DNA of 64,000 nucleotides. Origin: Chiloscyllium plagiosum. Lineage: Eukaryota. A program made the position numbers and the translations under genes. This document shows, piece by piece, positions 12,622-62,866 of this stretch. A model generated the notes under the pieces. That model worked only from the letters and a program-made list of their open reading frames with translations. It did not search any database and was not told where the DNA came from. The DNA lies in NCBI RefSeq assembly GCF_004010195.1, contig NC_057751.1:3347733-3411732 (forward strand). The letters run 5' to 3'. Position 1 is the stretch's first letter, and the number at the start of each line of letters is the position of its first letter.

Positions 12622-12670
12622 GATTCCTTTCAAGATCGGTCAGCCCAAGAAACAGATTGTGCCGAAGACT
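12622..12670 (+). CDS. BIN3: BIN3 coding exon 2 (49 nt): (W)IPFKIGQPKKQIVPKT
   Basis: Acceptor ttttacAG at 12620-12621 and donor GTaagt at 12671. The translation matches the vertebrate BIN3 N-terminus (MSWIPFKIGQPKKQIVPKT) as I recall it. The first G completes the Trp codon from an upstream exon. Confidence 0.95.
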
Positions 12671-14744
12671 GTAAGTATAAGATTTCAAAGCCAAAGAATA
12701 TTTTTATTCTCTCACGGTCAGCTAAATTCTTCATCAGTTTGCACTGTTTGGACAGGACTGTTGAATATTTTGATGCCATATATTAGCAGGAAGTGGTCTG
12801 AAATTGAAATGACCCCTTCTCTCCAAAATCTATATTGTGCAAATAGACATGTTGAGAATTCACTGTGGAAAGAACAGAGAGCTGAATATATTTCATGTCA
12901 CTTTGTGCGTTTCCAGTCAGATTTCCAACAAATGCTCATGGATGGAGAAAGACAGAAATCTGGAAGCTGATGTTGAGAAAGAACACTGCTTTATCTGGGA
13001 GAAGATGACACCTCACTGAGTTGGGCGCACATAGTTCCAACATTGACTTCAGATTCAGATTAAGCTTGCAAAGCTTGTTCCCCACGAAGTTTATATTCGT
13101 TAGAAGGTGTTCCTTCATCACTGTCTAACTCTCTCTTTCCACTTGGCTTGATGTTCAGATTGAGATTCCAGCTCCTGCTTTGGGCTCAGTGCTGCACCTT
13201 ACTAGTTCTGCTGGCTGAATTTTGTGAGACGCAGAGTGACGTACCTGTTGCCAGGTGATCTGCAGAGGGCACTGTGATATTTGGGTGACTTCACCTTGCT
13301 GAGTCTGAGAAACCATTCCTTCCAGCACACTCCAGGCTGCTGTGTCCAGCGGCCCGTCCCCACATTCCAGAGAAATCAGTCAGTCAGTCATTTAAGTGCA
13401 AATTGCTGGCCTGAAGCCTGAAACTTGTGAGCACTGTTCCTCCATCAAACAGCAGTAAACTCTGACCTGTGGCTGGGACTATTTCACAATTAGACTTTTG
13501 TGGCATTTGGGCACACAAGTGGATCTTGAAGGCTGAATAATGCATTGTGTGTTATGTGGTACGGTGCTCCTGTAATAATCCCTGATGATCAAAGTGTGCC
13601 AAATTGCCCCTTAACTGTTTCTTGTGAACACTTGGTCTGCTCTGAATTTTCTCATGTTATCCTACTTTATTGTAAAATATGAAACTATGCCCTCTGCCAA
13701 GCTGTCGGTTCAGATTTGTGCCAGGGTATTGATTCTGCTGCAGGATGGATGGGCACAGCCCCCTCTTGCACCTTGGTCATGTTTCTGCGTCACCTCTTCT
13801 CCGTCTGACCTTGGCTGCACGCCAGAATGCTGTGGGTCACGTAAGAATCAGAGTAGTCTGGCCTCGTGTTTGAAGGGTTTGACCCAAGAGCCAGATTGTT
13901 CAGCTTTTGGTGTTGGAAGTTGTTTTCTGGTTTTGAGGGTGGTTTGCACATGCAATCAATTGGTACAATGGCCTCCTCATTTGCTCACTGGACAATTCAG
14001 CATTGGTGTTCCGAGAAGTTGCAATGTATCTTGACAAGGTCATCAAAAATGCAAACCTGAGAACTCATGGTGATTATTATAGGATGAGATTTGGAAAGTA
14101 GGGCAGTTGTGTTAAATTGCTGTCCGATCAGGGATAAATTGCATTCGGACAGCTGTGATTTTCAAGTACGTATTTCGGAGCACTAGCAAAGGTCCCAAAT
14201 TGATGTGCAATTAAGACTGTGTTCAGTTCCAATCTCCCTGCTTTTGGAAAGGAATTGTAAAACTTGAGAGGCTGCAACAAAGATTTACAAGCATGTTACC
14301 GAACTTGGAGGATTTGAAGCACAGGGAGAGGCTGAGTAGTCTGGGGATATTTTCTGTGAAGCTTTGGAGGCTGAAGGGTGATCTTACAGAGGTTTATAAA
14401 ATCATGAGGGGAATGGATAGGGTAAATAGATAAAGTCTTTTCCCAGGGTTGGGGGAGTCCAGAACTAGAGGTCATAGGTTTAAGGTGAGAGGGGAAGGAT
14501 TTAAAAAGGATCTCAGGGGTAACTTTTCACGCAGAGGGTGGTATGTGTATGGAATGAGCTGCCAGAGGAAGTGGTGGAGGCTGGTACAATGACAACATTG
14601 AAATGGCACCTGGATGGGTATATGAATAGGAAGGGTATAGAGGGATATGGAGGAGAAAGTGAGGTCTGCAGATGCTGGAGATCAAAGTTGAAACTTTATT
14701 GCTGGAACAGCACAGCAGGTCAGGCAGCATCCAGGGAACAGGAG

Positions 14745-14780
14745 ATTCGACGTTTCGGGCACAGGCCCTTCTTCAGGAAT
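14745..14780 (-). ncRNA. Minimal type I hammerhead ribozyme motif (antisense to BIN3)
   Basis: The minus strand reads AUUC-CUGAAGA-A-GGGC-CUGU-GCCC-GAAA-CGUC-GAAU, the exact reverse complement of 15199-15234. Confidence 0.8.
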
Positions 14781-15198
14781 GAGCAGAGAGTGTTCAGCAG
14801 GAGAAGATAAAAGGTAGGGAGGAGGGACTTGGAGGAGGGGAGTTGGAAATGTGATAGGTGGAAAGAGGTCAAGGTGAGGGTGATAGGTCGGAGTAGGACG
14901 GAGGCGGAGAGGTCAAGAAGAAGACTACAGGTCAGGAAGGCTTGACCTGCAGTCTTCTTCTTGACCTGTCCGCCTCCATCCTACTCCGACCTATCACCCT
15001 CACCTTGACCTCTTTCCACCTATCACATTTAGCAGTCTTCTTCTTGACCTGCAGTCTTCTTCTTGACCTGTCCGCCTCCATCCTACTCCGACCTATCACC
15101 CTCACCTTGACCTCTTTCCACCTATCACATTTCCAACTCCCCTCCTCCAAGTCCCTCCTCCCTACCTTTTATCTTCTCCTGCTGAACACTCTCTGCTC

Positions 15199-15234
15199 AT
15201 TCCTGAAGAAGGGCCTGTGCCCGAAACGTCGAAT
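15199..15234 (+). ncRNA. Minimal type I hammerhead ribozyme motif with an intact core (sense to BIN3)
   Basis: Stem I AUUC(15199-15202)/GAAU(15231-15234). Core CUGAAGA 15203-15209. Stem II GGGC/GCCC with a CUGU loop. GAAA 15223-15226. Loopless palindromic stem III ACGU. Predicted cleavage after GUC at 15230. Confidence 0.82.
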
Positions 15235-15777
15235 CTCCTGTTCCCTGGATGCTGCCTGACCTGCTGTGCTATTCCAGCAATAAAGTTTCAACATAGAGGG
15301 ATATGGGCCAAGTGCTGGCAAGTAGACTGGATTAATTTAGGATATCTGGATGACAGGGATGAGTTGGTCCAAAGACTCTGTTTCCATGCTTTACATCTCG
15401 ATGACTGTCATGTTATTTGTGTCAGGTGTGACTTGACAGGTTGGGGTTCTTGTCTCCAGAGATGAGAAGGCTGAGGGGTCACTATAACGGGTGTCTTCAG
15501 AATTATGAAAGGCGAGGAGTGGAAAAGTGATCCCACTTGAAAGAATTCACAACTAGACGTGAGATGGTCACCAAGAAGTCCAGTTGTGAATTGAGGAGAA
15601 AGTTCTTCAGCCACGGACAAGGGTGAGAATATGAAAATCACAGCTTCAGAGAGTGCTTGAGGTGAAGTGAGGTAAATGAGGGAGAGGCAAGAGACATTGT
15701 TCAGTGTGAGGAAGCTCATGTTGAGCATAAACATCAGCATGGATAATTGGGTACATGGTCATTGAGCGATAAAATTC

Positions 15778-16465
15778 TGTTATGACAAAGGGTAAACCCT
15801 CCTGCTTAATTTAAAACGAGCAACACAGAAAAAACTTATCCCGTGCAGTAATCTGTGAAAATTCGAGAGGTCAAGAACTAGTTTAAAGTAAAAATTAACA
15901 ACTGTATTTCTTAAAGTATAACAGAGAATAATGAACTAACAACTATTTAAAACTCCTTTCTCGAAACTATCTTTTACTTTCCCTTCTATAATTCTAGTCT
16001 GATAAACCCCCGATTAAGATTTACCAAAAATTCAAATTTCAAAACCAACCAGCTGTCGAATCTTCCTTTATATCTTCCTCTGACTTTTTTTCTGCTTCTT
16101 AGGGATTTCTGCCTCACAGGTCACTGAACGATAAAGGTACCTTTAACAGAGCTATTCTCCGGGCAGTCTGCAGATGTCGTTGGCTTGGCAGTTCTCCTCT
16201 TAACTGTTCAATTCTCCCCAGTCTTATACCTCCAAAGCATCAGATTGTGTCATTGGTTTTAAGATTGTCAATGTACAAATTTCAAACTTGATTGGAGTTT
16301 GGTTTTTTTGTGGTACAATTTAAACGGATTGGCCGAATTCAAATTTGTTTTTGTCTCCAGGCAACCAACTACACTAGCTGCTGGACCACATGTTACACTA
16401 TATCTGGTTTAGAACACTTGGTGCTGTCAGGTAGTTCTGCTAGCTACCCTTACTCCTTCATAACC
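15778..16465 (-). mobile_element. Solo LTR (~690 bp)
   Basis: Ends TGTTATGA...TCATAACC (terminal A apparently mutated to C), with a 4-bp TSD ATTC at 15774-15777 and 16466-16469. Orientation is inferred from a degenerate polyA-signal region on the minus strand. Confidence 0.7.
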
Positions 16466-19400
16466 ATTCCATGTGACAAATAAAAGGTGGGTTACCCTCC
16501 AAATGTGTTGAAAGTGGTGGATCTGTTCCTGAAGATTATCTCCACGTTTGTCATTCTGAAAGTTTGCCCTGTCACTGGGCTTCTTATCCAGTAGCATTAT
16601 CTTCAAAGGATAATACTGATATGTGATACCCAGTGTGAAAATTCCCTGGCAATACCTGTGTGCCAACACTGATATGCACAAGCATCCTTGTCTTGTTTGG
16701 GCTAAATTCCCACTTGCTTTGTTTTAAAACTACACAGGGGAGTAAAAAGCTAAATATTTAAAAGCAAACGCACAAATATCTTGGGTTTATACAGAAACCA
16801 GTTGCATTGGTGTGGATTTGAAGGAGCAGCTGTGCTCTTGTGGCAACCCCTTTCCCATTGCCCCTCAACACGCCTCCTCCATGAATCAGAGTCTGGAAAG
16901 GAACTTGATTTTAATGCAAATGGTGATTTAAATAGTTCCTTGAAGGCTATATCTCGGTAAAATACTGGCTTTTGTTGATAATTGCCTGTGAGTCACTCTG
17001 TGTGAGCACCTCGTGCTCTGAAGCAGAGCAGCAGTTCAAATTTCATCTCGAGTTTGCATGATGACCTGTGTTTCTCACAAACAATTGGCAGTACATTCCT
17101 TCCAGGTATCATGGTTGAGCATCTTGTTGTCTTTTTTGAAAAAAAAGGTCCAAAATTTTAAAAACAACAACATGTATATCCTTCCCTTGACCACCCACAC
17201 CCCCCCGCCTTCTCACCCAGCTCTCCCAGCTCAGTCTGCAGTTAGAGGATTGAGCATTTGGGAAGGAGATGAGGGGAAATTTCCTCACTTCATGGCCGAT
17301 ATATCTTGGGAATTGCTGCAGCGTTCTGAGGTGACCGAGTATATTCAAGGCTGGTATTGGTGCGTGTTTGGACCCTCAACGAATGCAGGGAGAGCGCTAC
17401 AAAGTGCAACTTAAGCTGTGATCTTAGCAAGGGTCTGAGGGACAGATATATCCATTGCTTTTCACATTGGCCTTTGAGGAGAATTTTGTTCTTGTATGGG
17501 ATGTGTCACTGACAAAGCCAGCATTTGTTCTCCATTTCTAATTGGCCTTAAATCGAATGGTTGCTGAATCATCTCACGGTGCAGTTGAGAGTCAGACAGT
17601 TGGCTGTGGTATGGCACGTGTGAGAGGCCAGACTGGGCAAGGACTGCTGATATCCATTCCTGGAGGAAATCTGACCATCGGTGTGTGTTTTTATAAGAAT
17701 CCCTGATCGCTTCATGGTTACTATGACTGAGAATAGTTTTCCGTTCTCCAATTACTAATTACATGGAAACACCACTGTCTGCCATGATGGAATTTGAACC
17801 CAAGATCCCAGAGCATTGCTGGGTTACTTGTGATGACTAGTCCAGTGGTGTGACCACTATATCACCATCTCCTGGTGTTTTTTTTCAATGTTTCTGATTA
17901 TACCTTTTATACGGGATGGAATGATAATGAAGATGTGAGCTTTAAAATTGTCCGGCTTGGGGCAATAATGATTACTGGACAGCATGTAACTGCACAACAG
18001 ACCACCAGTCATGAACCATTGGTTTCATTGTCAGCTATTTGTTGTTCCAATGCTAATTGTATTAGCTGTTTCATTCCATTACCTTATCCTATCACATGAC
18101 ACATTGTGGAAGGTTGCACACCAGAAGTGATGCAGGAGTTGTATTCCGCTGAGTTTACAGAAGTTGCACTTGTTCAGAAGAGCCTCACTGATGTTAATCA
18201 TGTCACACTGAGCACCACAGTCTTGGAATATAGTCTGATCCAACCTCGAGTGTACACCTTAGACATGTTGAAGTTGTACAAACAGGTCTCGTCTGGTAGA
18301 CAGCGCAGCAGAGCAATACAGTATCGTTCATGTATTAAGATGTTCCCTGGGGCATATGTGGCTACCTTTTATTGAGCCACAGTTATGTTTGTCGTCAACT
18401 GATTGCAGAATGCTGCTTTGGGTGTGGTTGCAGTGTTACTTGATATTGATTGGCTCTGCAAATTTGTCAGCGTGTGTTTAAACCACCTTGTGTTCACTTG
18501 TATTTCCTCAGGAAGGTGTACAAATGTGAGCAGGAATCCTCCAGTGTTGCATGAACGAGTTCACAAGCTCACGGGTGAATTTTCACACAACCAATCCTTG
18601 TGCAATTCCAGGGATCTGACAGGAAGCTCCCAGTCTGACAGAGACTTGTGTTGTCTTCTATTCTTTTGCTTATGGCATTGTTTCCAAATGTGTCTGAAAA
18701 TTGTGAAAGAATTCTTCAATCTTTAGTGGCTGGCGTTGTCCTTTCACTGCCATGGCAGTGGATCATGCTGGTTGCCCATGTAAGTCTTGAAGACAAATTG
18801 TGTGAAAGTTAGGGCTTCATCTCTGTTGGCAGTATGAATTTTACCATCTGTAGCGAGGCAGGACCAGAGACTAGCTGCAGATTGTCCTATCATCTATCCT
18901 GAGGTGTTTCTTTATTGTGTATCTCTCTTGCAACCATTAAGAGCTCCTGATGGTATGTCCCATTTTCCCTACTTGAAAAAGAAATAAATCAAGAGCCAAA
19001 TAATGTGTATTGATGTTCACTATTTTGGGGCATCCCTGAGCATTTCACAGCCAGTGTCGGCACTGTTGTTTTGCAGAAAACACATCAGTTTCGTTGTGCA
19101 AAGCAAGCTTCCACAGTGTCTGTGTGATGTTACTTAAAAGGGAGGTAAATATTAGAGAGTGCTAAAGGCCACTCAAAATCTTTTAGCTTTGTGCCCCCTG
19201 TTCAATTGAGTGTGTAGACCGTTGATTATTTTTATTACAGGCTGTGCACACGTGGCCCCTCACGAGGATACTTGACTTGGATGGGAACTTGCAGCTTGCT
19301 GCAGACTATGTAGCTTCAGGCAATATTTAGGACCTGTCTCTACAACACCTGCAAGGCATGGGGGCCTCGGTTTAACTTCTCATCTGGGCATTGGGTGGAA

Positions 19401-22400: not shown

Positions 22401-23412
22401 GAAGGGGTGATGTGGGGCGCTGAGCGATCGTGGATCTGGTTTAGTGTAAAGCTTGGTAGGCAAATGCTGACTGGATGGAGAATTGCAAAACAAGCCCCTA
22501 TGGGTGAAGACCTGTTTCCTCACCTCATTCTTAAATGACTGACCCAGCAGCATAGAAGGAAGCCATTCAGCCCATTGTGACTGTTCTGGCTCTCAGAACG
22601 TTTTGATGCCATTCTGCTGCCTTGTCCCTGGAAGACTGCACGGTGATGACTAGTCAAATAGAAATAATAACCTCTGGAATACCTGGATTGAACTTGCCTC
22701 CTGTCACTTCCAGGCAGTGCATTCCATACCCGAAACAAATCAGTGTGGCTATTCCCTTACACTCACCCGCTGCAGTCAATGCGACCTGCTGCTTCTTGAC
22801 ATAATTATGTTCACCGTCATTGTTTGGTAAGTGTAAAAACACTCTGAGATTTGAACTGGTGAAGAGGGCACAATAGTCATGTCTTCTTGTCTAAATGGTG
22901 GCCAGAACGATGACGTTCAGGAGTATGTTGTTTTGAGATGGCTGTAAACAGAAATATTACAACTCAGCAGAACATCAGAGTTTACTTCAGATTGAAAAGA
23001 AATCTTTGGCTTGAGGCAAGTGCAGATAAACAGCAGCTTTGTTCAACCACAAACTAATTAAGCTTTGCCTCACTCAATACCCGTATTGGTAAGTCTTTAA
23101 TTAAATGAGTGCAATTGGTTCTGCAGTCTGTTTGGAAATCCAGGTTGAATACCATTTTCATGTTAACCAAAGTTGTTCAGTACCCAGCTTCCTGACACTG
23201 AATTTCTGTGCAGTTGGAACTCTGACTGACGTGACACATGGTACAACCTTGTTGCCACTTGCACAGAACGTGGGGGCTTTTAAAGCTGTGGGAAAACTAC
23301 AGGTCTGAATATGAAATAGTTCTTGCAGTGCAGACTGAGAGAGGTTAGGATTTCTGTTTCTGTAACTGGTAAATGATTCATTGGGTCCTGTGCCTGTCAG
23401 AATACTTCCCGG

Positions 23413-26400
23413 GCATGGACAGGGAGATATTCCGGTTAGAGGCGCAGACACGGACAGGGAGATATTCTGGTTAGAGCCGCAGACACGGACGGGGAGATAT
23501 TCCGGTTAGAGCCACAGACACGGACAGGGAGATATTCCGGTTAGAGCCACAGACACGGTCAGGGAGATATTCCGGTTAGAGCAGACACAGACAGGGAGAT
23601 ATTCCGGTTAGAGCAGACACAGACAGGGAGATATTCCGGTTAGAGCCACAGACACGAACAGGGAGATATTCCGGTTAGAGCAGAAACGGACAGGGAGATA
23701 TTCCGGTTAGAGCAGACACAGACAGGGAGATATTCCAGTTAGTGCAGACACAGACAGGGTGATATTCCGGTTAGAGCCACAGACACGGACAGGGAGATAT
23801 TCCGGTTAGAGCCACAGACACGGACGAGATATTCCGGTTAGAGCCGCAGACACGGACAGGGAGACATTCCGGTTAGAGCAGACATGGACTGGGAGATATT
23901 CCGGTTAGAGCCGCAGACACAGACAGGGAGATATTCCGGTTGGAGCCGCAGACACGGACAGGGAGATATTCCGGTTAGAGCCACAGACACGGACACGGAG
24001 ATATTCCGATTAGAGCCGCAGACACGGACAGGGAGATATTCCGGTTAGAGGCGCAGACAGGGAGATATTCTGGTTAGAGCAGACACGGACAGGGAGATAT
24101 TCCGGTTAGAGCCACAGACACGGACAGGGAGATATTCCGGTTAGAGCAGACACAGACAGGGAGATATTCCGGTTAGAGCCACAGACACAGACAGGGAGAT
24201 ATTCCGGTGAGAGCCACAGACACGGACAGGGAGATATTCCGGTTAGAGCAGACACCAGACAGGGAGATATTCCGGTTAGAGCCACAGACACGGTCAGGGA
24301 GATATTCCGGTTAGAGCCACAGACACGGACAGGGAGATATTCCGGTTAGAGCAGACACAGACTGGGAGATATTCCGGTTACAGCAGACACGGACAGGGAG
24401 ATATTCCGGTTACAGCAGACACGGACAGGGAGATATTCCGGTTAGAGCCACAGACACGGACAGGGAGATATTCCGGTTAGACCCACAGACACGGACAGGG
24501 AGATATTCCAGTTAGAACAGACACGGACAGGGAGATATTCCGGTTAGTGCAGACACGGACAGGAAGATATTCCGGTTAGAGCAGACACGGACAGGAAGAT
24601 ATTCCGGTTAGAGCAGACAAGGACAGGAAGATATTCCGGTTAGAACAGACAGGGACAGGGAGATATTCCGGTTAGAGCAGACACAGACAGGGAGATATCC
24701 CGGTTGGAGCCACAGACACGGACAGGGAGATATTCCGGTTGGAGCCACAGACACGGACAGGGAGATATTCTGGTTAGTGCAGACACAGACAGGGAGATAT
24801 TCCGGTTAGAGCCACAGACACGGACAGGGAGATATTCCGGTTAGAGCAGACTTGGACTGGGAGATATTCCGGTTAGAGCCACAGACACGGACAGGGAGAT
24901 ATTCCGGTTAGAGCAGACACGGACAGGGAGATATTCCGGTTAGAGGCGCAGACACGGACTGGGAGATATTCCGGTTAGAGCCACAGACACGGACAGGGAT
25001 ATATTCCGGTTAGAGCAGACACGGACAGGAAGATATTCTGGTTAGAACAGACACGGACAGGGAGATATTCCGGTTAGAGCAGACACGGGCATGGAGATAT
25101 TCCGGTTAGTGCAGACACGGGCAGGAAGATATTCCGGTTAGAACAGACACGGACAGGAAGTAATTCCGGTTAGAACAGACAGGGACAGAGAGATATTCCG
25201 GTTAGAGCAGACACAGACAGGGAGATATTCCAGTTAGAGCAGACACAGACAGGTAGATATTCCGGTTAGAGCCACAGACACGGACAGGGAGATATTCCGG
25301 TTAGATCCACAGACACGGACAGGGAGATATTCCGGTTAGAGTCACAGACACAGACAGGGAGATATTCCGGTTAGAGCAGACACGGACAGGGAGATATTCC
25401 GGTTAGAGCAGACACGGACTGGGAGATATTCCGGTTAGAGCAGACACGGACAGGGAGATATTCCGGTTAGAGCAGACACGGACAGGGAGATATTCCGGTT
25501 AGAGCAGACACGGACAGGGAGATATTCCGGTTAGAGCAGACACGGACAGGGAGATATTCCGGTTAGAGCAGACACGGACAGGGAGATATTCCGGTTAGAG
25601 CCACAGACACGGACAGGGAGATATTCCGGTTAGAGCCACAGACACGGACAGGGAGATATTCCGGTTAGAGCCACAGACACGGACAGGAAGTAATTCCGGT
25701 TAGAGCAGACACAGACAGGGAGATATTCCAGTTAGAGCAGACACAGACAGGTAGATATTCCGGTTAGAGCCACAGACACGGACAGGGAGATATTCCGGTT
25801 AGAGCCACAGTCACGTACAGGGAGATATTCCGGTTAGAGCTGACACGGACAGGGAGTTATTCCGGTTAGAGCCGCAGACACGAACAGGGAGATATTCCGG
25901 TTAAAGCAGACACAGACAGGGAGATATTCCGGTTAGAGCAGACACAGACAGGGAGATATTCCGGTTAGAGCCACAGACATGGACAAGGAGATATTCCGGT
26001 TAGTGCAGACACAGACAGGGAGATATTCCGGTTAGAGCCACAGACACGGACAGGGAGATATTCCGGTTAGAGCAGACACGGACAGGGAGATATTCCGGTT
26101 AGAACCGCAGACACGGACAGGGAGATATTCCGGTTAAAGCAGACACGGACAGGGAGATATTCCGGTTAGAGCCACAGACACGGACAGGGAGATATTCCGG
26201 TTAGAGCAGACACGGACAGGAAGATATTCCGGTTAGAACAGACACGGACCCGGAGATATTCCGGTTAGAGCAGACACGGACAGGGAGATATTCCGGTTAG
26301 TGCAGACACAGACAGGGAGATATTCCGGTTAGAGCCGCAGACACGGAAAGGGAGATATTCCGGTTAGAGCCACAGACACGGACAGGGAGATATTCCGGTT

Positions 26401-27256
26401 AGAGCAGACACTGACAGGGAGATATTCCGGTCAGAGCCGCAGACGCGGACAGGGAGATATTCCGGTTACAGCAGACACGGAAAGGGAGATATTCCGGTTA
26501 GAGCCACAGACACGGACAGGGAGATATTCCGGTTAGAGCAGACACGGACAGGGAGATATTCCGGTTAGAGCAGACACGGACAGGGAGACATTCCAGTTAG
26601 AGCCGCAGACGTGGACAGGGAGATATTCCGGTTAGAGGCGCAGACACGGACTGGGAGATATTCCGGTTAGAGCAGACACGGACAGGGAGATATTCCGGTT
26701 AGAGCCACAGACACGGACAGGGAGATATTCCAGTTGGAGCCTCAGACACGGACAGGGAGATATTCCGGTTAGAGGCTCAGGCACGGACAGGGCGATATTC
26801 CGGTTCGAGCCACAGACACGGACAGGGAGATATTCCGGTTCGAGCCACAGACACGGACAGGGAGATGTTCTGGTTAGAGGCGCAGACACGGACAGGGAGA
26901 TATTCCGGTTGGAGCCGCAGACACGGACAGGGAGATATTCCGGTTGGAGCCGCAGACATGGACAGGGAGGGAGATATTCCGGTTAGAGCAGACACGGACA
27001 GGAAGATATTCTGGTTAGAACAGACACGGACAGGGAGATATTCCGGTTAGAGCAGACACGGGCATGGAGATATTCCGGTTAGAGCAGACACGGGCAGGGA
27101 GATATTCCGGTTAGAGCAGACACGGACAGGGAGATATTCCGGTTGGAGCCGCAGACACGGACAGGGAGATATTCCGGTTGGAGCCGCAGACATGGACAGG
27201 GAGATATTCCGGTTAGAGCCACAGACACGGACAGGGAGATATTCTGGTTCGAGCAG
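23413..27256. repeat. Minisatellite of about 115 interspersed 32-bp and 35-bp units
   Basis: Consensus GGACAGGGAGATATTCCGGTTAGAGC(CAC/CGC)AGACAC. A 32-bp period is measured at 25441-25473, and the long variant adds 3 nt. Copy number is estimated from length. Confidence 0.98.
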
Positions 27257-28408
27257 CTTTGCAACTGTCTTTGTTTCAATTTCAAGCACAACAGAAGTGT
27301 TTTTTGTGTTGAATATTGTCTGGTGGTCATCATTTATGAACGTCTCTGCTTTCTGAATGCCACTTGCGTATTTTGGCACCTGAACTGTTTGATCCTGTCT
27401 TTCATGCAGTTCGGTGTTACGTGGATGACATAACTCATTGTGTAATCCTGAGACCTGGACTAACACTCTACAGATGAGTTCAGATCCCAACAGATCAGCT
27501 GAACAAGTTAAATAATTCATAATTAAAGTAAATTTCAAATGTAAAAAAAAATTCATGCATGAAGCTGTTGTAAAAACCCATCTCGTTGACTGATGATCTT
27601 CAGGAAAGGAAATCAACCATCTTGACCCAATCTGGTGCCCTGTGGCCCCATTGCCATCAAATTTGAACTGTCTCTGAAATGGCCCAAAAACCCAACCAAT
27701 TGGTTTGACAAATAGCTGACCCTGACTTTAAGGGAAAGACTTTCAACATACTGAGTTGTCATCGAACTCAGACAGTTTTCTCTCAGTGTCTTGGGCATGG
27801 CAGTTCGCACAAGTTTCACATGTTAATTCTGCAAGAAATGATCTGATTTTCATCTGAATGAATGAATGTTGTCTGCTTCTGCCACATCTTGATCATTGAG
27901 CCACTTGCCAACTGGAATCAGTGTTTCTGCAGGAGTTTGGTGCTATTAAACTTGGAGCCACACAACTTTGGGCCTTGGGACAGTTTCTGACCTTGGTGGG
28001 AATGTGCTGTGCTGGGAAGTTGCTCACTTAAGTAGGTATGATCAGGGCAGTGATATTCCTGGCTTTTCAGGGATCGCCACTTTCAGCTGCATGTTGATGA
28101 CCAAAGAGACATGCACTTTGTCCTGCACTCAGGATCAGTGCGATCACCCCCAAATAATAATGAGCGCTATTTATATGAAGAGATGAAAGAGTGCTGAGTG
28201 GTTGACAAGTCAGCTATGATTGTTTGAGACATTGCTGTGGAGAAAGCAATGGGGAGCTCTGAGTGCTTCAAACTCCTTGTTGGTACAAATGATCGAACAC
28301 AGAGAATGAGCAGATTGCTTTAGTTTGCAGGGAATGAGTCCTTGTACAGGAATGGATGTCACTTATCAAACCACCAGCTGATGAGCCAGATTACAAATTT
28401 GACTGTGT

Positions 28409-34751: not shown

Positions 34752-34792
34752 GTGGAGAGAGATTTTGAGCGAGAATATGGCAAGCTTCAGCA
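34752..34792 (+). CDS. BIN3: BIN3 coding exon 3 (41 nt): VERDFEREYGKLQ(Q)
   Basis: Acceptor ttgcAG and donor GTaagt at 34793. Phase is compatible with exons 2 and 4. The peptide is visible at the end of ORF 34464..34796. Confidence 0.95.
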
Positions 34793-34990: not shown

Positions 34991-35052
34991 GCTGGAAGAT
35001 CAGATTAAGAAACTCCACAAGGATATGAAGAAAAGCACTGAAGCAGATATCG
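34991..35052 (+). CDS. BIN3: BIN3 coding exon 4 (62 nt): LEDQIKKLHKDMKKSTEADI
   Basis: Polypyrimidine tract plus ttcAG ending at 34990, donor GTagga at 35053. Homologous to BIN3 LEEQTRRLQKDMKKSTDADL, and the phases fit the flanking exons. Confidence 0.93.
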
Positions 35053-37120: not shown

Positions 37121-37222
37121 TCAATTTTCCTGCTCCTCGGATGCTGCCTGACCTGCTGTGCTCTTCCAGCACCACTCTAATCCAGAATCTGGTTTCCAAC
37201 ATCTGCAGTCATTGTTTTTACC
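37121..37222 (+). mobile_element. PLE terminal-repeat fragment downstream of the hammerhead cleavage site
   Basis: tcaattttcctgctcctcggatgctgcctgacc...catctgcagtcattgtttttacc. Same family as 1062-1216. Confidence 0.75.
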
Positions 37223-37472
37223 GAACAGTATAGGAAGCACAATTTGCATGCAGTCAAGGTCTTGCAAGTAACAACATGATAATGACCGGAAGATGTATTT
37301 CAGTGATCCAAGTTGAAGGTTCCATTTTAGTTTGGACACTTTGGAGATTCTTTTCACATCCACCAGAGAAAGCAGAGGGGTTCGAGATTTCATGTCTCCC
37401 TCAGAAACTGTCAGGTGAAATGACATGCCCTATTCTCTGGAGCAGGACTTGAATTGACACATTTCTGACTTA

Positions 37473-37559
37473 GATGGAAATGTGTTGCTGGAAAAGCGCA
37501 GCAGGTCAGGCAGCATCTAGGGAACAGGAGAATCGACGTTTCGGGCATTAGCCCTTCTT
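37473..37559 (-). mobile_element. ~87-bp PLE terminal-repeat insertion truncated in the hammerhead core
   Basis: 13-bp direct repeat CATTTCTGACTTA (37460-37472 and 37560-37572). The minus strand reads UGAAGAAGGGCUAAUGCCCGAAACGUCGAUU and lacks the first core C and the 5' strand of stem I. Confidence 0.85.
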
Positions 37560-38156
37560 CATTTCTGACTTAACTGTGAGCTGCTGAACCCCAACTGATC
37601 TGAATATTGTCACGCCACGGGAGCACTGCTCGATTCGGTGTTGAGTCGTTCAGTCCCAAAGTCACATGTCTGATAATGGAACAACGTGGAACCGAAGTGC
37701 CAGTATATTACTTTCTTGCTTTTCCAGACAAATTCATGTGTTGAAACTTAACTCGGTCTGGACCCTACGATTCTGTGTAGAAATTGAGGATGAATTTCCT
37801 GCACAAAATGAAAGCAGGGGTGCTATTAATAATCTGACCACATGAGTTGCAGTGAAGGGGTTAGAGAGAGTGCTTTGGGAGGGTGTAGCAGGGTGGGAGA
37901 GCTGGAGGATAACCCTGTCCTGAGGGTGCAAGGAGAAACAACTTCATGAGCATGAAAGGGTATGGGGACAGAATGCAAACAGCAGACCAGGATGGATGAT
38001 CAGCTGTTCCCACACTGAATGGTGGAGTAAGCTTGAAGGGGCGAATGCTCCTATATTCTCTGTTTCTATCTCAACACATTTTCACGGTAGTTCTCTGTGT
38101 TATTTTAATGGAAGCACAAACTCATTTACACTGGTGAATGAAGTCGTGTTGCCATT

Positions 38157-38892: not shown

Positions 38893-39029
38893 CCATGTCC
38901 AAGTCAGCGGTGAAAATTTCTTCGGATTTGCTGGCCAACCCTTTGTGTGAACAAGATCAGATGTTTATGGAGACGGTGACCGCTCTGGACACTGCAATGC
39001 GCAGAATGGATACGTTCAATCAGGAAAAG
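38893..39029 (+). CDS. BIN3: BIN3 coding exon 5 (137 nt): AMSKSAVKISSDLLANPLCEQDQMFMETVTALDTAMRRMDTFNQEK
   Basis: Acceptor ttctttccAG at 38891-38892 and donor GTttgt at 39030. Strong match to the BIN3 BAR-domain segment, within ORF 38754..39041. Confidence 0.97.
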
Positions 39030-42262: not shown

Positions 42263-42303
42263 GTCAATCAGATTCAGAAAACTGCCATTGAACCACTGAA
42301 AAA
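42263..42303 (+). CDS. BIN3: BIN3 coding exon 6 (41 nt): VNQIQKTAIEPLK(K)
   Basis: T-rich tract plus catcAG acceptor, donor GTaagt at 42304. Matches BIN3 VNQIQKTVIEPLKK. Confidence 0.95.
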
Positions 42304-46050: not shown

Positions 46051-48275
46051 TGTTGTATGTTTTCGACGTTCAGTTGATGATTTTAAGAAGAAGGTGCTCA
46101 TCTATGCAAATAGGCAGCAGAGACAGGACTCCTGTTTGGGATATGAATGGGCCTGGTTGATTGTTCTGTTGCTCACTCTTGGGATTCTTCATTCCGCTCG
46201 ATGGATTTCTGATTTCAGTGTTGCTTGAATGGCACTCAATTTTTCTTGAGTGCTGTCTGGGGATCTGACGGAATAATATCAGGGCCCAGTGGGAATCTCT
46301 TCAGGAAGGCCAATCGCATGCAATTCATGGGTTTGTGCCTCTGCTTCCTGCATTCGCTCTTCCCAAATTTGGTTCGTGTTCACAGGGAATTTCCGCAAAG
46401 CAGGCCCCCATGGACTTGAAGTCAGAATGGAAACACAAAGCCAATCCTCTGCCATCGTTTGCAATGCTGCTTGGTTCTGAAGACAGCCATTTAACAGGAA
46501 CTTACATGTCATCAACAATGACATCACTGAGCTCAGCGAAACAAGACTCTGCCTCCCACATGCGCTCAGACACACACACAAAACGCTGTTTTGCAAAACC
46601 AACTATTATTTTGTCTCTTTGCTTCCTTGTGTCCAATTATAAATTTGAGACCAGCTCATTCAAGCCATCATCCTGCCAGACATGGGAAGTGAAACCTACA
46701 TGAAAGAGAACTCTTTGGTGGTGGCAAATGTCAGTCGGAGGCATACCTTTGGTCACTGAACAGCACTGAAGTCATGAGTGTTTTTTCTTGTGTGTTCACT
46801 TATGTCAACTCCTGTTAAATACATGCAGGACCAAATGTCATTGAGGACATAGCAGTTATAGTTTTGTGTCATACCCACAGCCCTCCAATGGTCGGAAATG
46901 AGCCTTACAGATAGATTGGCGAAGGATCATTCAGAAGTCAGTCATGACTTGCAAAGTGATTTATCATCCTGTCCGGTTATTGTAGCAATGCCTCTCACTG
47001 TTGGGTGGTATTTTCTTTGGCTGCATGGCTCTGGCTTGCTCCACTGTACTTGGGTCAATTGCTCGCACTGCTGCCTCTGCTGCACTCAAGCAACTGATTC
47101 CAGAAATGAGGCTGATTCTCTGGCACCACATTGTTGGGGGATAATAGGCAGAGTCACTGCCTGCCAATTGTGATGCACCATGGGAGCTGCTGCTACCTGT
47201 CCTTGATTGGTGAAGGAGATGTACAGTTGCATGCCTTGTAACTGGCTCACATTCCAAGCAAGTTGCCGCAACAAGCAGCCCTCAGGCTTGGATGCCATCT
47301 TTCATCTAAGTTCTAAGGTGCTGAATAGGAACTTTATAAGACAAAAGTTTACACCAAGCCACATATTATGGACACACTACAGCTCATGACGAAAAGCTCA
47401 GAACAAAAACTATGCTTGTGACGCAAACAATCTGCAATCTGCAAACTGCAAGCACACAACTAACAAACTGCATTGTTAGATGCCCAGTTATGGTGAATTA
47501 TGGAGTATGAATTTTTTTCTGTAGCCAAGTGTCAAATAGTGTTCCGTCGCCTCACTGTGAAGTGCTTAGCCATGTTTTAGAATGTTAATGCTGTTATAGG
47601 AAGGCCACTTGTTGTTCCAATCCTCCACAATTGCTGGAATTCTGAAACAAGGATTAAATGGTCAGTACTGCAGTGTATTCCTGTCTGCCACTGATATCTT
47701 TCTAATTCTCACATACTCACACTGTGTCTCCAGCATTGACTGAGCTCAGACTTTATTAAGTTCTTCATTTTGATCCGATGTTAAAGCAAAAAAAAGTCTT
47801 ACGAAACATGAATAATCTGAGGCAGTGAACCACATTTCCACTTTTTTTTCCCAATAAAAATACAAGATGCTCTCTCTCAACTTACTGTATCAGTTAGATT
47901 CCTACCAATTCCCAATTGGCTTTTGATGGGTTTTCTTTCCTGGACATCCATGTGGTTAAAATCAACAATGAGAAAGTGAGGACTGCAGATGCTGGGGATC
48001 AGAGCTTAAAAATGTGTTGCTGAAAATACCGAACAACCCAGGTGGCCTCCTTCTTCAAAGACTGCAATTTCCCCTCAGACGTGGTTGACGATGCCCTCCA
48101 CTGCATCTCCTCCACTTCCCGCTCCTCCGCCCTTGAGCCCCGTCCCTCCAATCGCCACCAGGACAGAACCCCACTGGTCCTCACCTACCACCCCACCAAC
48201 CTCCATATACATCGTATCATCCGTCGTCATTTCCGCCACCTCCAAACGGACCCCACCACCAGGGATATATTTCCC

Positions 48276-48702
48276 NNNNNNNNNNNNNNNNNNNNNNNNN
48301 NNNNNNNNNNNNNNNNNNNNNNNNNNNNNNNNNNNNNNNNNNNNNNNNNNNNNNNNNNNNNNNNNNNNNNNNNNNNNNNNNNNNNNNNNNNNNNNNNNNN
48401 NNNNNNNNNNNNNNNNNNNNNNNNNNNNNNNNNNNNNNNNNNNNNNNNNNNNNNNNNNNNNNNNNNNNNNNNNNNNNNNNNNNNNNNNNNNNNNNNNNNN
48501 NNNNNNNNNNNNNNNNNNNNNNNNNNNNNNNNNNNNNNNNNNNNNNNNNNNNNNNNNNNNNNNNNNNNNNNNNNNNNNNNNNNNNNNNNNNNNNNNNNNN
48601 NNNNNNNNNNNNNNNNNNNNNNNNNNNNNNNNNNNNNNNNNNNNNNNNNNNNNNNNNNNNNNNNNNNNNNNNNNNNNNNNNNNNNNNNNNNNNNNNNNNN
48701 NN
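48276..48702. other. Assembly gap inside the PLE
   Basis: Run of N. Confidence 1.
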
Positions 48703-48794
48703 TTAACCTCCTTCCACCTATCGCATTCCCAACGTCCCTCCCCCAAGTCCCTCCTCCCTACCTTTTATCTTAGCCTGCTTGGCACACCCTCCTC

Positions 48795-48830
48795 ATTCCA
48801 GAAGAAGGGCTTATGCCCGAAACGTCGATT
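48795..48830 (+). ncRNA. Hammerhead motif with a mutated core (CAGAAGA), probably inactive
   Basis: AUUC-CAGAAGA-A-GGGC-UUAU-GCCC-GAAA-CGUC-GAUU, with the conserved U4 replaced by A at 48800. Confidence 0.65.
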
Positions 48831-48970
48831 CTCCTTCTCCTTTGATGCTGCCTGACCTGCTGCGCTTTTCCAGCAACACATTTTTAAGTCCTTGTGGTTA
48901 AGTCTATCTGTGAATTACATCAATATAAGTTTCTCAGTTGGCATTTGTACCAATGCTTGGCTAAACTCTG

Positions 48971-52100: not shown

Positions 52101-52555
52101 TACATTTTAAACCACTTGGCCAGAATAGATTGGCTTCAAGTGTACTTCCTGGTGGGTGGATGGACAGACGGATGTGTAGGTTCACTTTGGGGAGAGCATG
52201 CATTCCTAAAGGCTGTTTAAATATCCGATGCCTTCTCTGATTGATCCTGTTAGGTTAGAAGCCTGAAGCTGCAGCTGCTGGGAGAAACCAAACTGCTGCA
52301 TGACGTTGGCTACAGAATACATGATGTCATCATGAACTCTGTCACTGAGTTTGTGAATACGAGCATGACTGATTTGTATTCGACAAGGGGTGCACATTCA
52401 CTTTGAACCTGAATAATTCCTATGTGTGAAGATCCTCACCGTTGGACATTTTGTATCTTTCTCTATCCTACGTGCACTGTCAGTGATTCTCATCACACAC
52501 CCACCCCTGCTCCCCAGGAGCTCTTCCCAGGTTCCAGGGCCCCCCCTTTGAAACA

Positions 52556-53004
52556 GGGAGAAAGTGAGGACTGCAGATGCTGGAGATCAGAGCTTAAAAA
52601 TATGTTGCTGGAAAAGCGCAGCAGGTCAGGCAGCATCAAAGGAACAGGAGAATCGATGTTTTGGGCATAAGCCCCTCTTCAGGAATGAGGCGGGTGTGCC
52701 GAGCGGGCTAAGATAAAAGGTAGGGAGGAGGGACTTGGGGGAGGGGCGTTGGGAATACGATAGGTGGAAGGAGGTTAAGGTGAGGGTGATAGGCCGGAGA
52801 GGGGGTGTCTCATTTCCCCTCCCCCCACCTTTTCTCAGTCCCAGCCCTCAGATTCATCACCGCCTTCCTAACCTGCAATCTTCTTCCTGACCTCTCCGCC
52901 CCCACCGCCTCTCCGGCCTATCACCCTCACCTTAACCTCCTTCCACCTATCGTATTCCCAACGCCCCTCCCCCAAGTCCCTCCTCCCTACCTTTTATCTT
53001 AGCC
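52556..53004. mobile_element. Penelope-like inverted-repeat insertion running into a gap
   Basis: Same tail (gagaaagtgaggactgcagatgctggagatc) and arm as 14651. ~52706-52801 is the reverse complement of ~52909-53004. The hammerhead at 52651-52686 (-) has GAAA changed to AAAA. Confidence 0.85.
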
Positions 53005-56703: not shown

Positions 56704-56949
56704 GTTGAAGTGTGGTGCTGGAAAAGCACGGCAGATCAAGCAGCATCCGAGGAGTAGGAGAATAGACATTTCACGCATAAGCTCTTCATCTGGAATGTTG
56801 GGGGTGGGGTGGTGAAGGGGGCTGAGGGATAAATAGGAGCGTGGGGGTGGAGCTGGGGGCAATAAGTCAGTGGGAAAGGTGGAGCAGATAGGTGGGAAAG
56901 AAGATGGACAGATCAAGAGGACAGTGACCTGCAGTCCTCACTTTGTCCT
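56704..56949. mobile_element. PLE terminal-repeat insertion with an inverted tail and a degenerate hammerhead
   Basis: Imperfect 13-bp TSD agaa(a/g)ggaaagtt (56691-56703 and 56950-56962). Ends with ctgcagtcctcactttgtcc, the reverse complement of the family tail. Confidence 0.75.
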
Positions 56950-62353: not shown

Positions 62354-62866
62354 GATTCGAGAGTGTGGTGCTGCAAAAGCATAGCAGGTCAGGCAGTATC
62401 TGAGGAGCAGGAGAATAGACATTTCAGGCAAAAGCCCTTCATCAGGAATGAAGCTGGAAGCTGAGGGGGTGGAGAGATTTGGGGGTGGGGGTTGGTGGGG
62501 CTGGGGGGAAGGTAGGTGAGAGTGCGAGAGGTAGATGGAGATGGGGGTAATGATGATAGGTCGGAGGGAGAGTGGAACAGATGGGTGGGAAGGAATATCG
62601 GCAGGTCATGAGGGCGGTGCTGAGCTGGAACTGGGGGGATGGGAAATGAGGAAACTGGTGAAATCCACTTTGATGCCATGGGGTTGGAGGGTCCCAAGGC
62701 AGAACGTGAGGCTTTCTTCCTCCTGGCGTCGGGTGGACAGGGCATGATGATGGAGACGGCATGTCCTTGGCAGAGTGGGAGGGGGAGTTGAAGTTTTCGG
62801 CTACAGGTCAGTGCGGTTGGTTGGTGTGGGTGTCCCAGAAATATTCTCTGAAGCGTTTTGCAAGGA
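62354..62866 (-). mobile_element. Penelope-like element 3' fragment (GIY-YIG endonuclease C-terminus plus terminal repeat) nested in CR1
   Basis: The minus strand reads LAKRFREY...PVAENFNSPSHSAKDM and RRQEEESLTFCLGTLQPHGIKVDF, typical of the PLE endonuclease C-terminus. TSD gg(c/a)cctaatctta at 62341-62353 and 62867-62879. Confidence 0.88.
62414..62449 (-). ncRNA. Hammerhead motif with near-intact core in the PLE terminal repeat
   Basis: AUUC-CUGAUGA-A-GGGC-UUUU-GCCU-GAAA-UGUC. Stem II has a G-U closing pair, stem III ACGU has decayed to AUGU, and stem I pairing is poor. Confidence 0.62.

Follow-up and report, generated by a model that had tools for sequence, protein, structure and literature searches.

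Can a hammerhead motif that lies in the sense strand of an intron cut the pre-mRNA that carries it? The question is raised by the sequence at 15199–15234 of the 64-kb window (the whole stretch of DNA that was analysed, 64,000 nt), which has every residue of a hammerhead catalytic core inside an intron of a BIN3-like gene. The motif belongs to a young, high-copy Penelope-like element (PLE) hammerhead in a head-to-head insert, where full pairing with the antisense arm that precedes it is predicted, and we consider it highly probable that it never folds or cuts there.

A minimal hammerhead in a BIN3-like intron

Stem I is formed by ATTC (15199–15202) and GAAT (15231–15234), followed by the core box CTGAAGA at 15203–15209 with A as N7, by stem II, which pairs GGGC (15211–15214) with GCCC (15219–15222) around a CTGT loop, and by GAAA (15223–15226) and CGTC (15227–15230). 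Stem III is reduced to the loopless palindrome ACGT (15226–15229, ACGU in RNA), the G10.1–C11.1 pair is present (G15211–C15222) and the predicted cut, after 15230, follows a NUH triplet. The first-pass annotation had listed the core residues, the 4-bp stems I and II and the loopless ACGU, all of which are confirmed in the sequence, but it overlooked a single unpaired A (A15210) after A9 and before G10.1, as well as an identical copy on the minus strand (Table 1). A full descriptor (core, both stems and the stem III pair) had two matches in the window, the motif and its inverted twin, and none in any of the 200 first-order Markov sequences used as controls, so the motif is not a product of chance. 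An Rfam scan of 14000–16500 at E ≤ 10 found no hammerhead family, the hits being microRNA models on a long hairpin, each below its gathering score; as the motif is without helix III this miss is expected, and we count it as no evidence. Taken in isolation, the 36-mer folds no better than shuffled sequences (z = −0.8).

Five AG/GT-bounded exons on the plus strand, with lengths of 49, 41, 62, 137 and 41 nt, are all in phase and place the motif in sense orientation in an intron of 22,081 nt (12671–34751), in agreement with the location first proposed. We take the gene to be BIN3, both its name and the intron number being judged by peptide motifs and exon structure, and the exon upstream of the intron is presumably exon 2 by human BIN3 numbering. 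Look-ups of the 45-aa exon product in Pfam, PDB and Atlas returned no name, and neither the window nor the 10 kb on each side of it yielded the first exon of the gene or its last three. At the motif density of the genome (approximately one per 35 kb) there is a ~27% chance of a sense motif in an intron of such size, which makes the intronic location unremarkable. The same intron holds a long, strongly purine-skewed tandem array (23412–27257, with 88–89% self-identity at many offsets), and a multicopy repeat at 15780–16200 has high depth in DNA and in RNA-like contigs.

Table 1 Features of the window around the hammerhead motif and elsewhere.
Feature	Coordinates	Strand	Remarks
Minimal type I hammerhead	15199–15234	+	Pseudo-LTR of young Penelope-like element; would-be cut after 15230
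Identical hammerhead, opposite strand	14745–14780	−	Exact antisense of the motif in BIN3 pre-mRNA
Left arm, 5′-truncated pseudo-LTR copy	14651–14940	−	Ends in 36-nt tail, 14651–14686
Right arm, inverted 5′-truncated copy	14941–15292	+	Without tail; 102-nt partial tandem
TSD, left copy, 14 bp	14637–14650		Direct repeat
TSD, right copy, 14 bp	15293–15306		Direct repeat
Older interspersed repeat, insertion target	14320–14650, resuming 15293–15406		67–77% like other repeats of the window
Other sense hammerhead-like copy, sole one in the window	48799–48826	+	Older subfamily; core U4 to A
Older Penelope-like fragments	1068–1151, 37121–37210, 37472–37561, 47964–48887, 52552–53004, 56707–56806, 62362–62807		
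BIN3-like coding exon upstream of host intron	12622–12670	+	AG/GT-bounded, in phase
BIN3-like coding exon downstream of host intron	34752–34792	+	AG/GT-bounded, in phase
Further in-phase BIN3-like exons	34991–35052, 38893–39029, 42263–42303	+	AG/GT-bounded

The motif lies in a two-arm insert

The motif is carried by a 642-bp insert (14651–15292) flanked by 14-bp direct repeats, in which the minus-strand twin sits 420 nt upstream. The two arms are identical at 248 of 253 nt (five differences), and both extend ~160 nt upstream of the motif, which is unusual among the copies; the 102-nt partial tandem of the right arm (14941–15030 repeated as 15043–15132) holds no hammerhead. Published PLE insertion units consist of an inverted 5′-truncated copy with a 30–40-bp tail at one end (PMC8557442, PMC3846280), and opposite-strand hammerhead pairs 100–700 bp apart are known in PLEs (PMC4209133). 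On sequence grounds, the insert is this published head-to-head unit. EN+ PLEs as described have the same 5′ truncation, partial tandem, adjacent inverted copy, tail of 30–40 bp at one end and TSD (PMC8557442; PMC3846280; PMC11167929), although the TSD is 12–17 bp here and 8–10 bp in rotifer PLE examples.

The inverted arrangement might instead be an assembly artefact, the real insert having only one arm or being an element of much greater length, in which case the motif would be unmasked, partnerless and still silent. Many family copies in the assembly contain N gaps; the left-arm start recurs in L002 and L008, both of which begin at a gap edge, the left-arm haplotype is identical to that of L008 (291/291 nt), and the 102-nt duplication junction is found again in L013. 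Such sharing of arms and junctions, which extends to L011, reflects either a common source element or gap filling that reused reads, and the interior of the insert may be mis-assembled, with a true loop that is longer or shorter. However, the insert itself contains no N, the left-arm start in L011 is the same in the absence of a gap, a similar long head-to-head pair occurs in L095, and in its 14-bp TSD, the opposite polarity of its arms at the flanks and its one-sided tail the insert resembles 15 of the 17 other head-to-head pairs in L252–L302 (TSD of 12–17 bp, tail on one arm alone). We regard an artefact as decidedly unlikely. Neither hammerhead is more than ~130 nt from the flanks with the TSD, and the doubt about mis-assembly is thereby reduced, though not removed: the outer ends, the TSD and both hammerheads are likely right, the loop between the motifs being less sure.

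Predicted masking by the antisense arm

In predictions that ignore RNA-binding proteins and editing, either of which could open the duplex, 14640–15320 folds into one hairpin (−555.5 kcal/mol, z = −39) in which each base of the motif is paired with the left arm at p ≥ 0.997, and hammerhead stems I and II have p = 0 when the left arm is present. Forcing the hammerhead fold costs +67.3 kcal/mol with the left arm vs. 3.2–4.9 kcal/mol without it, and pairing with the antisense arm is already present in model transcripts ending at 15210, 15222 and 15234. The head-to-head geometry means that the antisense arm is always transcribed first; RNA polymerase would thus have made it before the ribozyme appears, and the ribozyme bases would be captured one by one on emergence.

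Even for a free motif the double hammerhead is not favoured in the energy model: with the antisense arm omitted it reaches −13.1 kcal/mol, vs. −14.2 kcal/mol for two monomers and −18.3 kcal/mol for an alternative dimer, and its cost in L002, a direct tandem that occurs naturally, is 15.6 kcal/mol. Minimal hammerheads are reported to be inactive as monomers and to have low activity as dimers (PMC4209133), and the lizard PLE ribozyme as described requires protein for cutting, is not needed for insertion and yields no read ends at its cut site (PMC11167929). No intact sense partner occurs in the 64-kb window. Its one other sense hammerhead-like copy lies 33 kb downstream, where it terminates a Penelope-like remnant with gaps, and the next intact sense copy is 3 kb beyond the end of the window, again in a head-to-head pair.

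The first-pass annotation had proposed a potential self-cleavage site in BIN3 pre-mRNA that would need a second copy. A usable site of this kind is not supported, given that the nearby copy is antisense, that pairing with it is predicted to be full and that the window has no intact sense partner; cleavage of BIN3 pre-mRNA at the motif is unlikely on these models. For the host, the effect would likely be an intronic double strand of ~250 bp, a possible ADAR substrate that is removed by splicing, whilst in an active element the motif would likely be under selection and would probably cut weakly, as a dimer and with the help of protein.

RNA reads

Run X21 is poly(A) single-cell RNA from another individual, of which ~2% was read, and its reads may come from any copy of the family. 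Family reads were found in both orientations, their ends did not pile up at the motif in this ~2% of the run, and the unique flank at 15385–15744 had zero depth in the same sample. RNA depth falls approximately threefold at the 5′ edge of the hammerhead, and DNA depth does the same. Of the variant places, 49 of 118 were A>G or T>C in RNA vs. 17 of 62 in DNA contigs. At 15171, 15225 and 15226, A>G was seen in 5/52, 8/140 and 7/143 of the X21 family reads of one strand class vs. 0/31, 0/74 and 0/76 of the other (p = 0.15, 0.05 and 0.10, respectively; not significant singly). A>G changes in one strand class at 5–10% of reads, two of them on catalytic-core adenines, are possibly A-to-I editing; one strand-skewed A>G, at 14691, has the direction opposite to editing.

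These data bear on a second reading, by which the BIN3 copy cuts at a low level in trans, pairing through ACGU with family transcripts once helicases or A-to-I editing have opened the hairpin, and so trims some of the pre-mRNA. The core and stems of the motif are intact, family RNA exists on both strands, an inverted arm is absent from 31 of the 60 core-intact copies sampled, which makes these possible partners, and A>G and T>C places are commoner in RNA than in DNA contigs. The same reading has to overcome the 67 kcal/mol penalty for the hammerhead fold, a double hammerhead that is no more stable than two monomers or the alternative dimer when the antisense arm is absent, and the low in vitro activity of such dimers (PMC4209133); family reads show no pile-up of ends, and A>G at 15225–15226 hits core residues and would disable the motif. 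We judge trans-cutting to be very unlikely, and keep to the masked, silent motif.

A young, high-copy Penelope-like family

The exact 36-mer is present in 8,512 copies in the 3.56-Gb genome, a subfamily-specific 32-mer of the 3′ end in 18,450 copies, and a relaxed 28-nt descriptor has 101,451 matches (reversed controls 0–1). As the best copies of 15133–15292 share 98–99% identity, the subfamily is young. Amongst the first 100 exact copies, neighbours less than 5 kb apart were arranged head-to-head in 14 cases, directly in four and tail-to-tail in none. In L136, L138 and L141 the identical 36-mer lies ~160–180 nt behind the end of an RT and GIY-YIG open-reading frame. The 893-aa frame of L138 matches Pfam RVT_1 above the cut-off (E 6e-8) and GIY-YIG just below it (E 4e-4), that of L141 has similar RVT_1 and GIY-YIG matches, both below the cut-off, and L006 has GIY-YIG above it. 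A C-x4-C-x2-C linker separates RT and EN in L135, L136, L138 and L141; a CX2-5CxxC linker is given as the mark of the Neptune and Nematis clades (PMC8557442), and EN+ PLEs of this type have the same linker and the same single RT-then-GIY-YIG frame (PMC8557442; PMC3846280; PMC11167929). By the linker motif the element would be a PLE of Neptune/Nematis type, a designation that spans the two clades. The insert in the window is without an RT/GIY-YIG frame, and no complete element, having both an intact open-reading frame and two pseudo-LTRs, was present among 20 longer stretches (18 of them scanned for open-reading frames).

The family agrees with the PLE minimal hammerheads described in PMC4209133 in its core boxes, the unpaired base between 9 and 10.1, the G10.1–C11.1 pair, the palindromic 15.2–16.2 and the 4-bp helix I, and likewise in its pseudo-LTR location, its thousands of solo copies and its opposite-strand pairs. 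It differs in helix II, which has 4 bp here vs. 7–8 bp in the Schistosoma families, and in copy number (~10^5 here vs. ~4,000 in coelacanth and ~9,000 in Xenopus, a rough comparison as the descriptors differ). The family evidence and that account together bear out the initial assignment to Penelope-like minimal type I hammerheads, a class presumed to act as dimers. The text on PLE hammerheads in PMC4209133 makes no mention of sharks, and our literature search found no report of a shark Penelope hammerhead or of a BIN3 hammerhead; a hammerhead survey (bioRxiv 10.64898/2026.07.22.740005) includes one cartilaginous fish.

Pairing is better preserved in stem II than in stem I. Both sides of stem II pair 2 are changed in 688 copies, and ~88 of the 100 double changes listed (counted by eye) are A–U in place of the original G–C, nearly all on one background, which points to one compensatory subfamily; double changes at pairs 3 and 4 (141 and 117) occur on mixed backgrounds. 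In an alignment of 35 copies (27 distinct, seven chosen for the A–U pair, with the core fixed by the search pattern), 97% of cells were paired in stem II and 69% in stem I, and between subfamilies loop II and N7 vary whilst stem II is kept. Older subfamilies (L061–L090, L113–L132) have ATTC opposite GATT or GACT in stem I, giving a U–U mismatch that speaks against a strictly kept structure, and all four bases are paired in the youngest subfamily only, from which it follows that an unmasked copy of the young subfamily could be competent. No true covariation was found in stem I among the genomic copies examined. The covariation by which the earlier annotation proposed to check the motif is therefore found to a modest degree, in one compensatory pair of stem II that represents a single event.

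Many copies begin at the 5′ edge of the ribozyme

Start points were sampled without bias at the first 100 3′-end anchors of contig C1 (L222–L302), giving 99 distinct copies after one duplicate was dropped, with two of the 99 starts misplaced by indels. Almost half (46/99) begin within −4 to +3 of the first base of stem I, 6/99 begin within 8 nt around the cut and 0/99 at the first base after it. An inverted arm is present in 54/99, and the core is intact in 60/99, 29 of these with and 31 without an inverted arm. A pattern requiring foreign sequence 11–12 nt upstream of the core recovered 3,733 copies, whereas the same design at the cut site recovered 1,193 with scattered starts. We rejected the cleavage site as the point where copies start, given the lack of any start at the first post-cut base in the 99 copies and the diffuse starts of the pattern search.

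Most copies of the family are stubs of 90–135 nt that begin at the first bases of the hammerhead, with lengths of ~94 or 130 nt according to the tail, and their start falls inside an initiator-like TCATTCC, which we take to fit the initiator consensus YYANWYY. Starts at the first bases of the ribozyme, and not at the cut site, fit transcription that starts there and templates that are uncleaved, which agrees with in vitro findings in PMC11167929; we infer that the element RNA begins at TCATTCC and that the stubs are run-off copies of uncleaved RNA. The Penelope promoter is reported to lie in the pseudo-LTR (PMC2377424), and our literature search found no description of stub starts at the 5′ edge of a PLE hammerhead. 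The lizard PLE protein is described as nicking and extending both strands, with reverse transcription starting at either of two internal positions of the RNA, one at each boundary of the tail (PMC11167929). At the BIN3 locus, the endonuclease of the element would have made a staggered 14-nt cut at the target, and reverse transcription would have been primed on both strands, on either side of the cut, one arm arising from each internal start site. The GUC/GAAU junction is continuous in each of the two arms, so their templates had not been cleaved at that point.

Relation to other intronic and mobile hammerheads

Amniote genomes have intronic hammerheads in RECK, CTCL and DTNB (PMC6155905), which are of type I and lie in sense orientation in introns, as here, and this precedent would allow a domesticated ribozyme in the intron, with a role in regulating the splicing of BIN3. 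Those ribozymes are described as rare, deeply conserved and canonical, whereas the BIN3 motif is recent, multicopy, minimal and masked, with neither a canonical stable helix III nor genomic rarity. The insertion is very young (98–99% identity to other copies) and the youth of the family argues against conservation at the orthologous intron; the motif is identical to 8,511 other copies and has no stem III, and its presence in sense is no more than the ~27% background would give. We attach next to no credence to domestication. The BIN3 motif is likely an ordinary transposon remnant, a silent part of a common insert, which carries little weight as a regulator of BIN3.

Non-LTR retrozymes (PMC7229834; bioRxiv 10.64898/2026.07.22.740005) are, like the copies here, short non-coding units with a PLE-related type I hammerhead. 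Their units are arranged as direct tandems, from which cleavage as dimers and circles become possible, whereas the BIN3 locus is an inverted pair and has no run of at least two consecutive direct units with complete hammerheads. Direct tandems of two intact hammerhead units do occur in L002 (minus strand, 286 nt apart) and L013 (490 nt apart); they are retrozyme-like and natural candidates for dimer cleavage, and have junctions and haplotypes in common with the BIN3 insert.

The family is more informative than the locus, as tens of thousands of near-identical recent copies amount to a genomic read-out of what the PLE hammerhead is for. With ~100,000 hammerheads sharing one ACGU, unmasked intronic sense copies might be cut in trans by family transcripts or with the protein of the element. 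The inverted arm, strictly head-to-head, would then serve as an off switch, masked copies such as that in BIN3 would be what selection against live ribozymes in introns has left, and unmasked sense copies with an intact core would be rarer in introns than antisense or masked ones; we hold this to be highly improbable. Where intronic hammerhead matches are found in such genomes, the presence of an upstream antisense arm and the background density of the motif should be checked.

Further Penelope-like sequences were seen beside the main family. Seven fragments of older subfamilies lie in the window, most on the minus strand with broken cores, and pieces of open-reading frame are retained at 48024–48275 and 62442–62807. 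About 3 kb past the end of the window (L095:2640–3070) lies a long head-to-head pair whose two hammerheads are intact and identical. Rare motifs with other stems (GTC...GAC; GGGT...ACCC) among the stem-variant matches may represent further small PLE families. In L097, several young copies lie within a minisatellite, which agrees with the preference for repeats that Neptune elements are reported to have.
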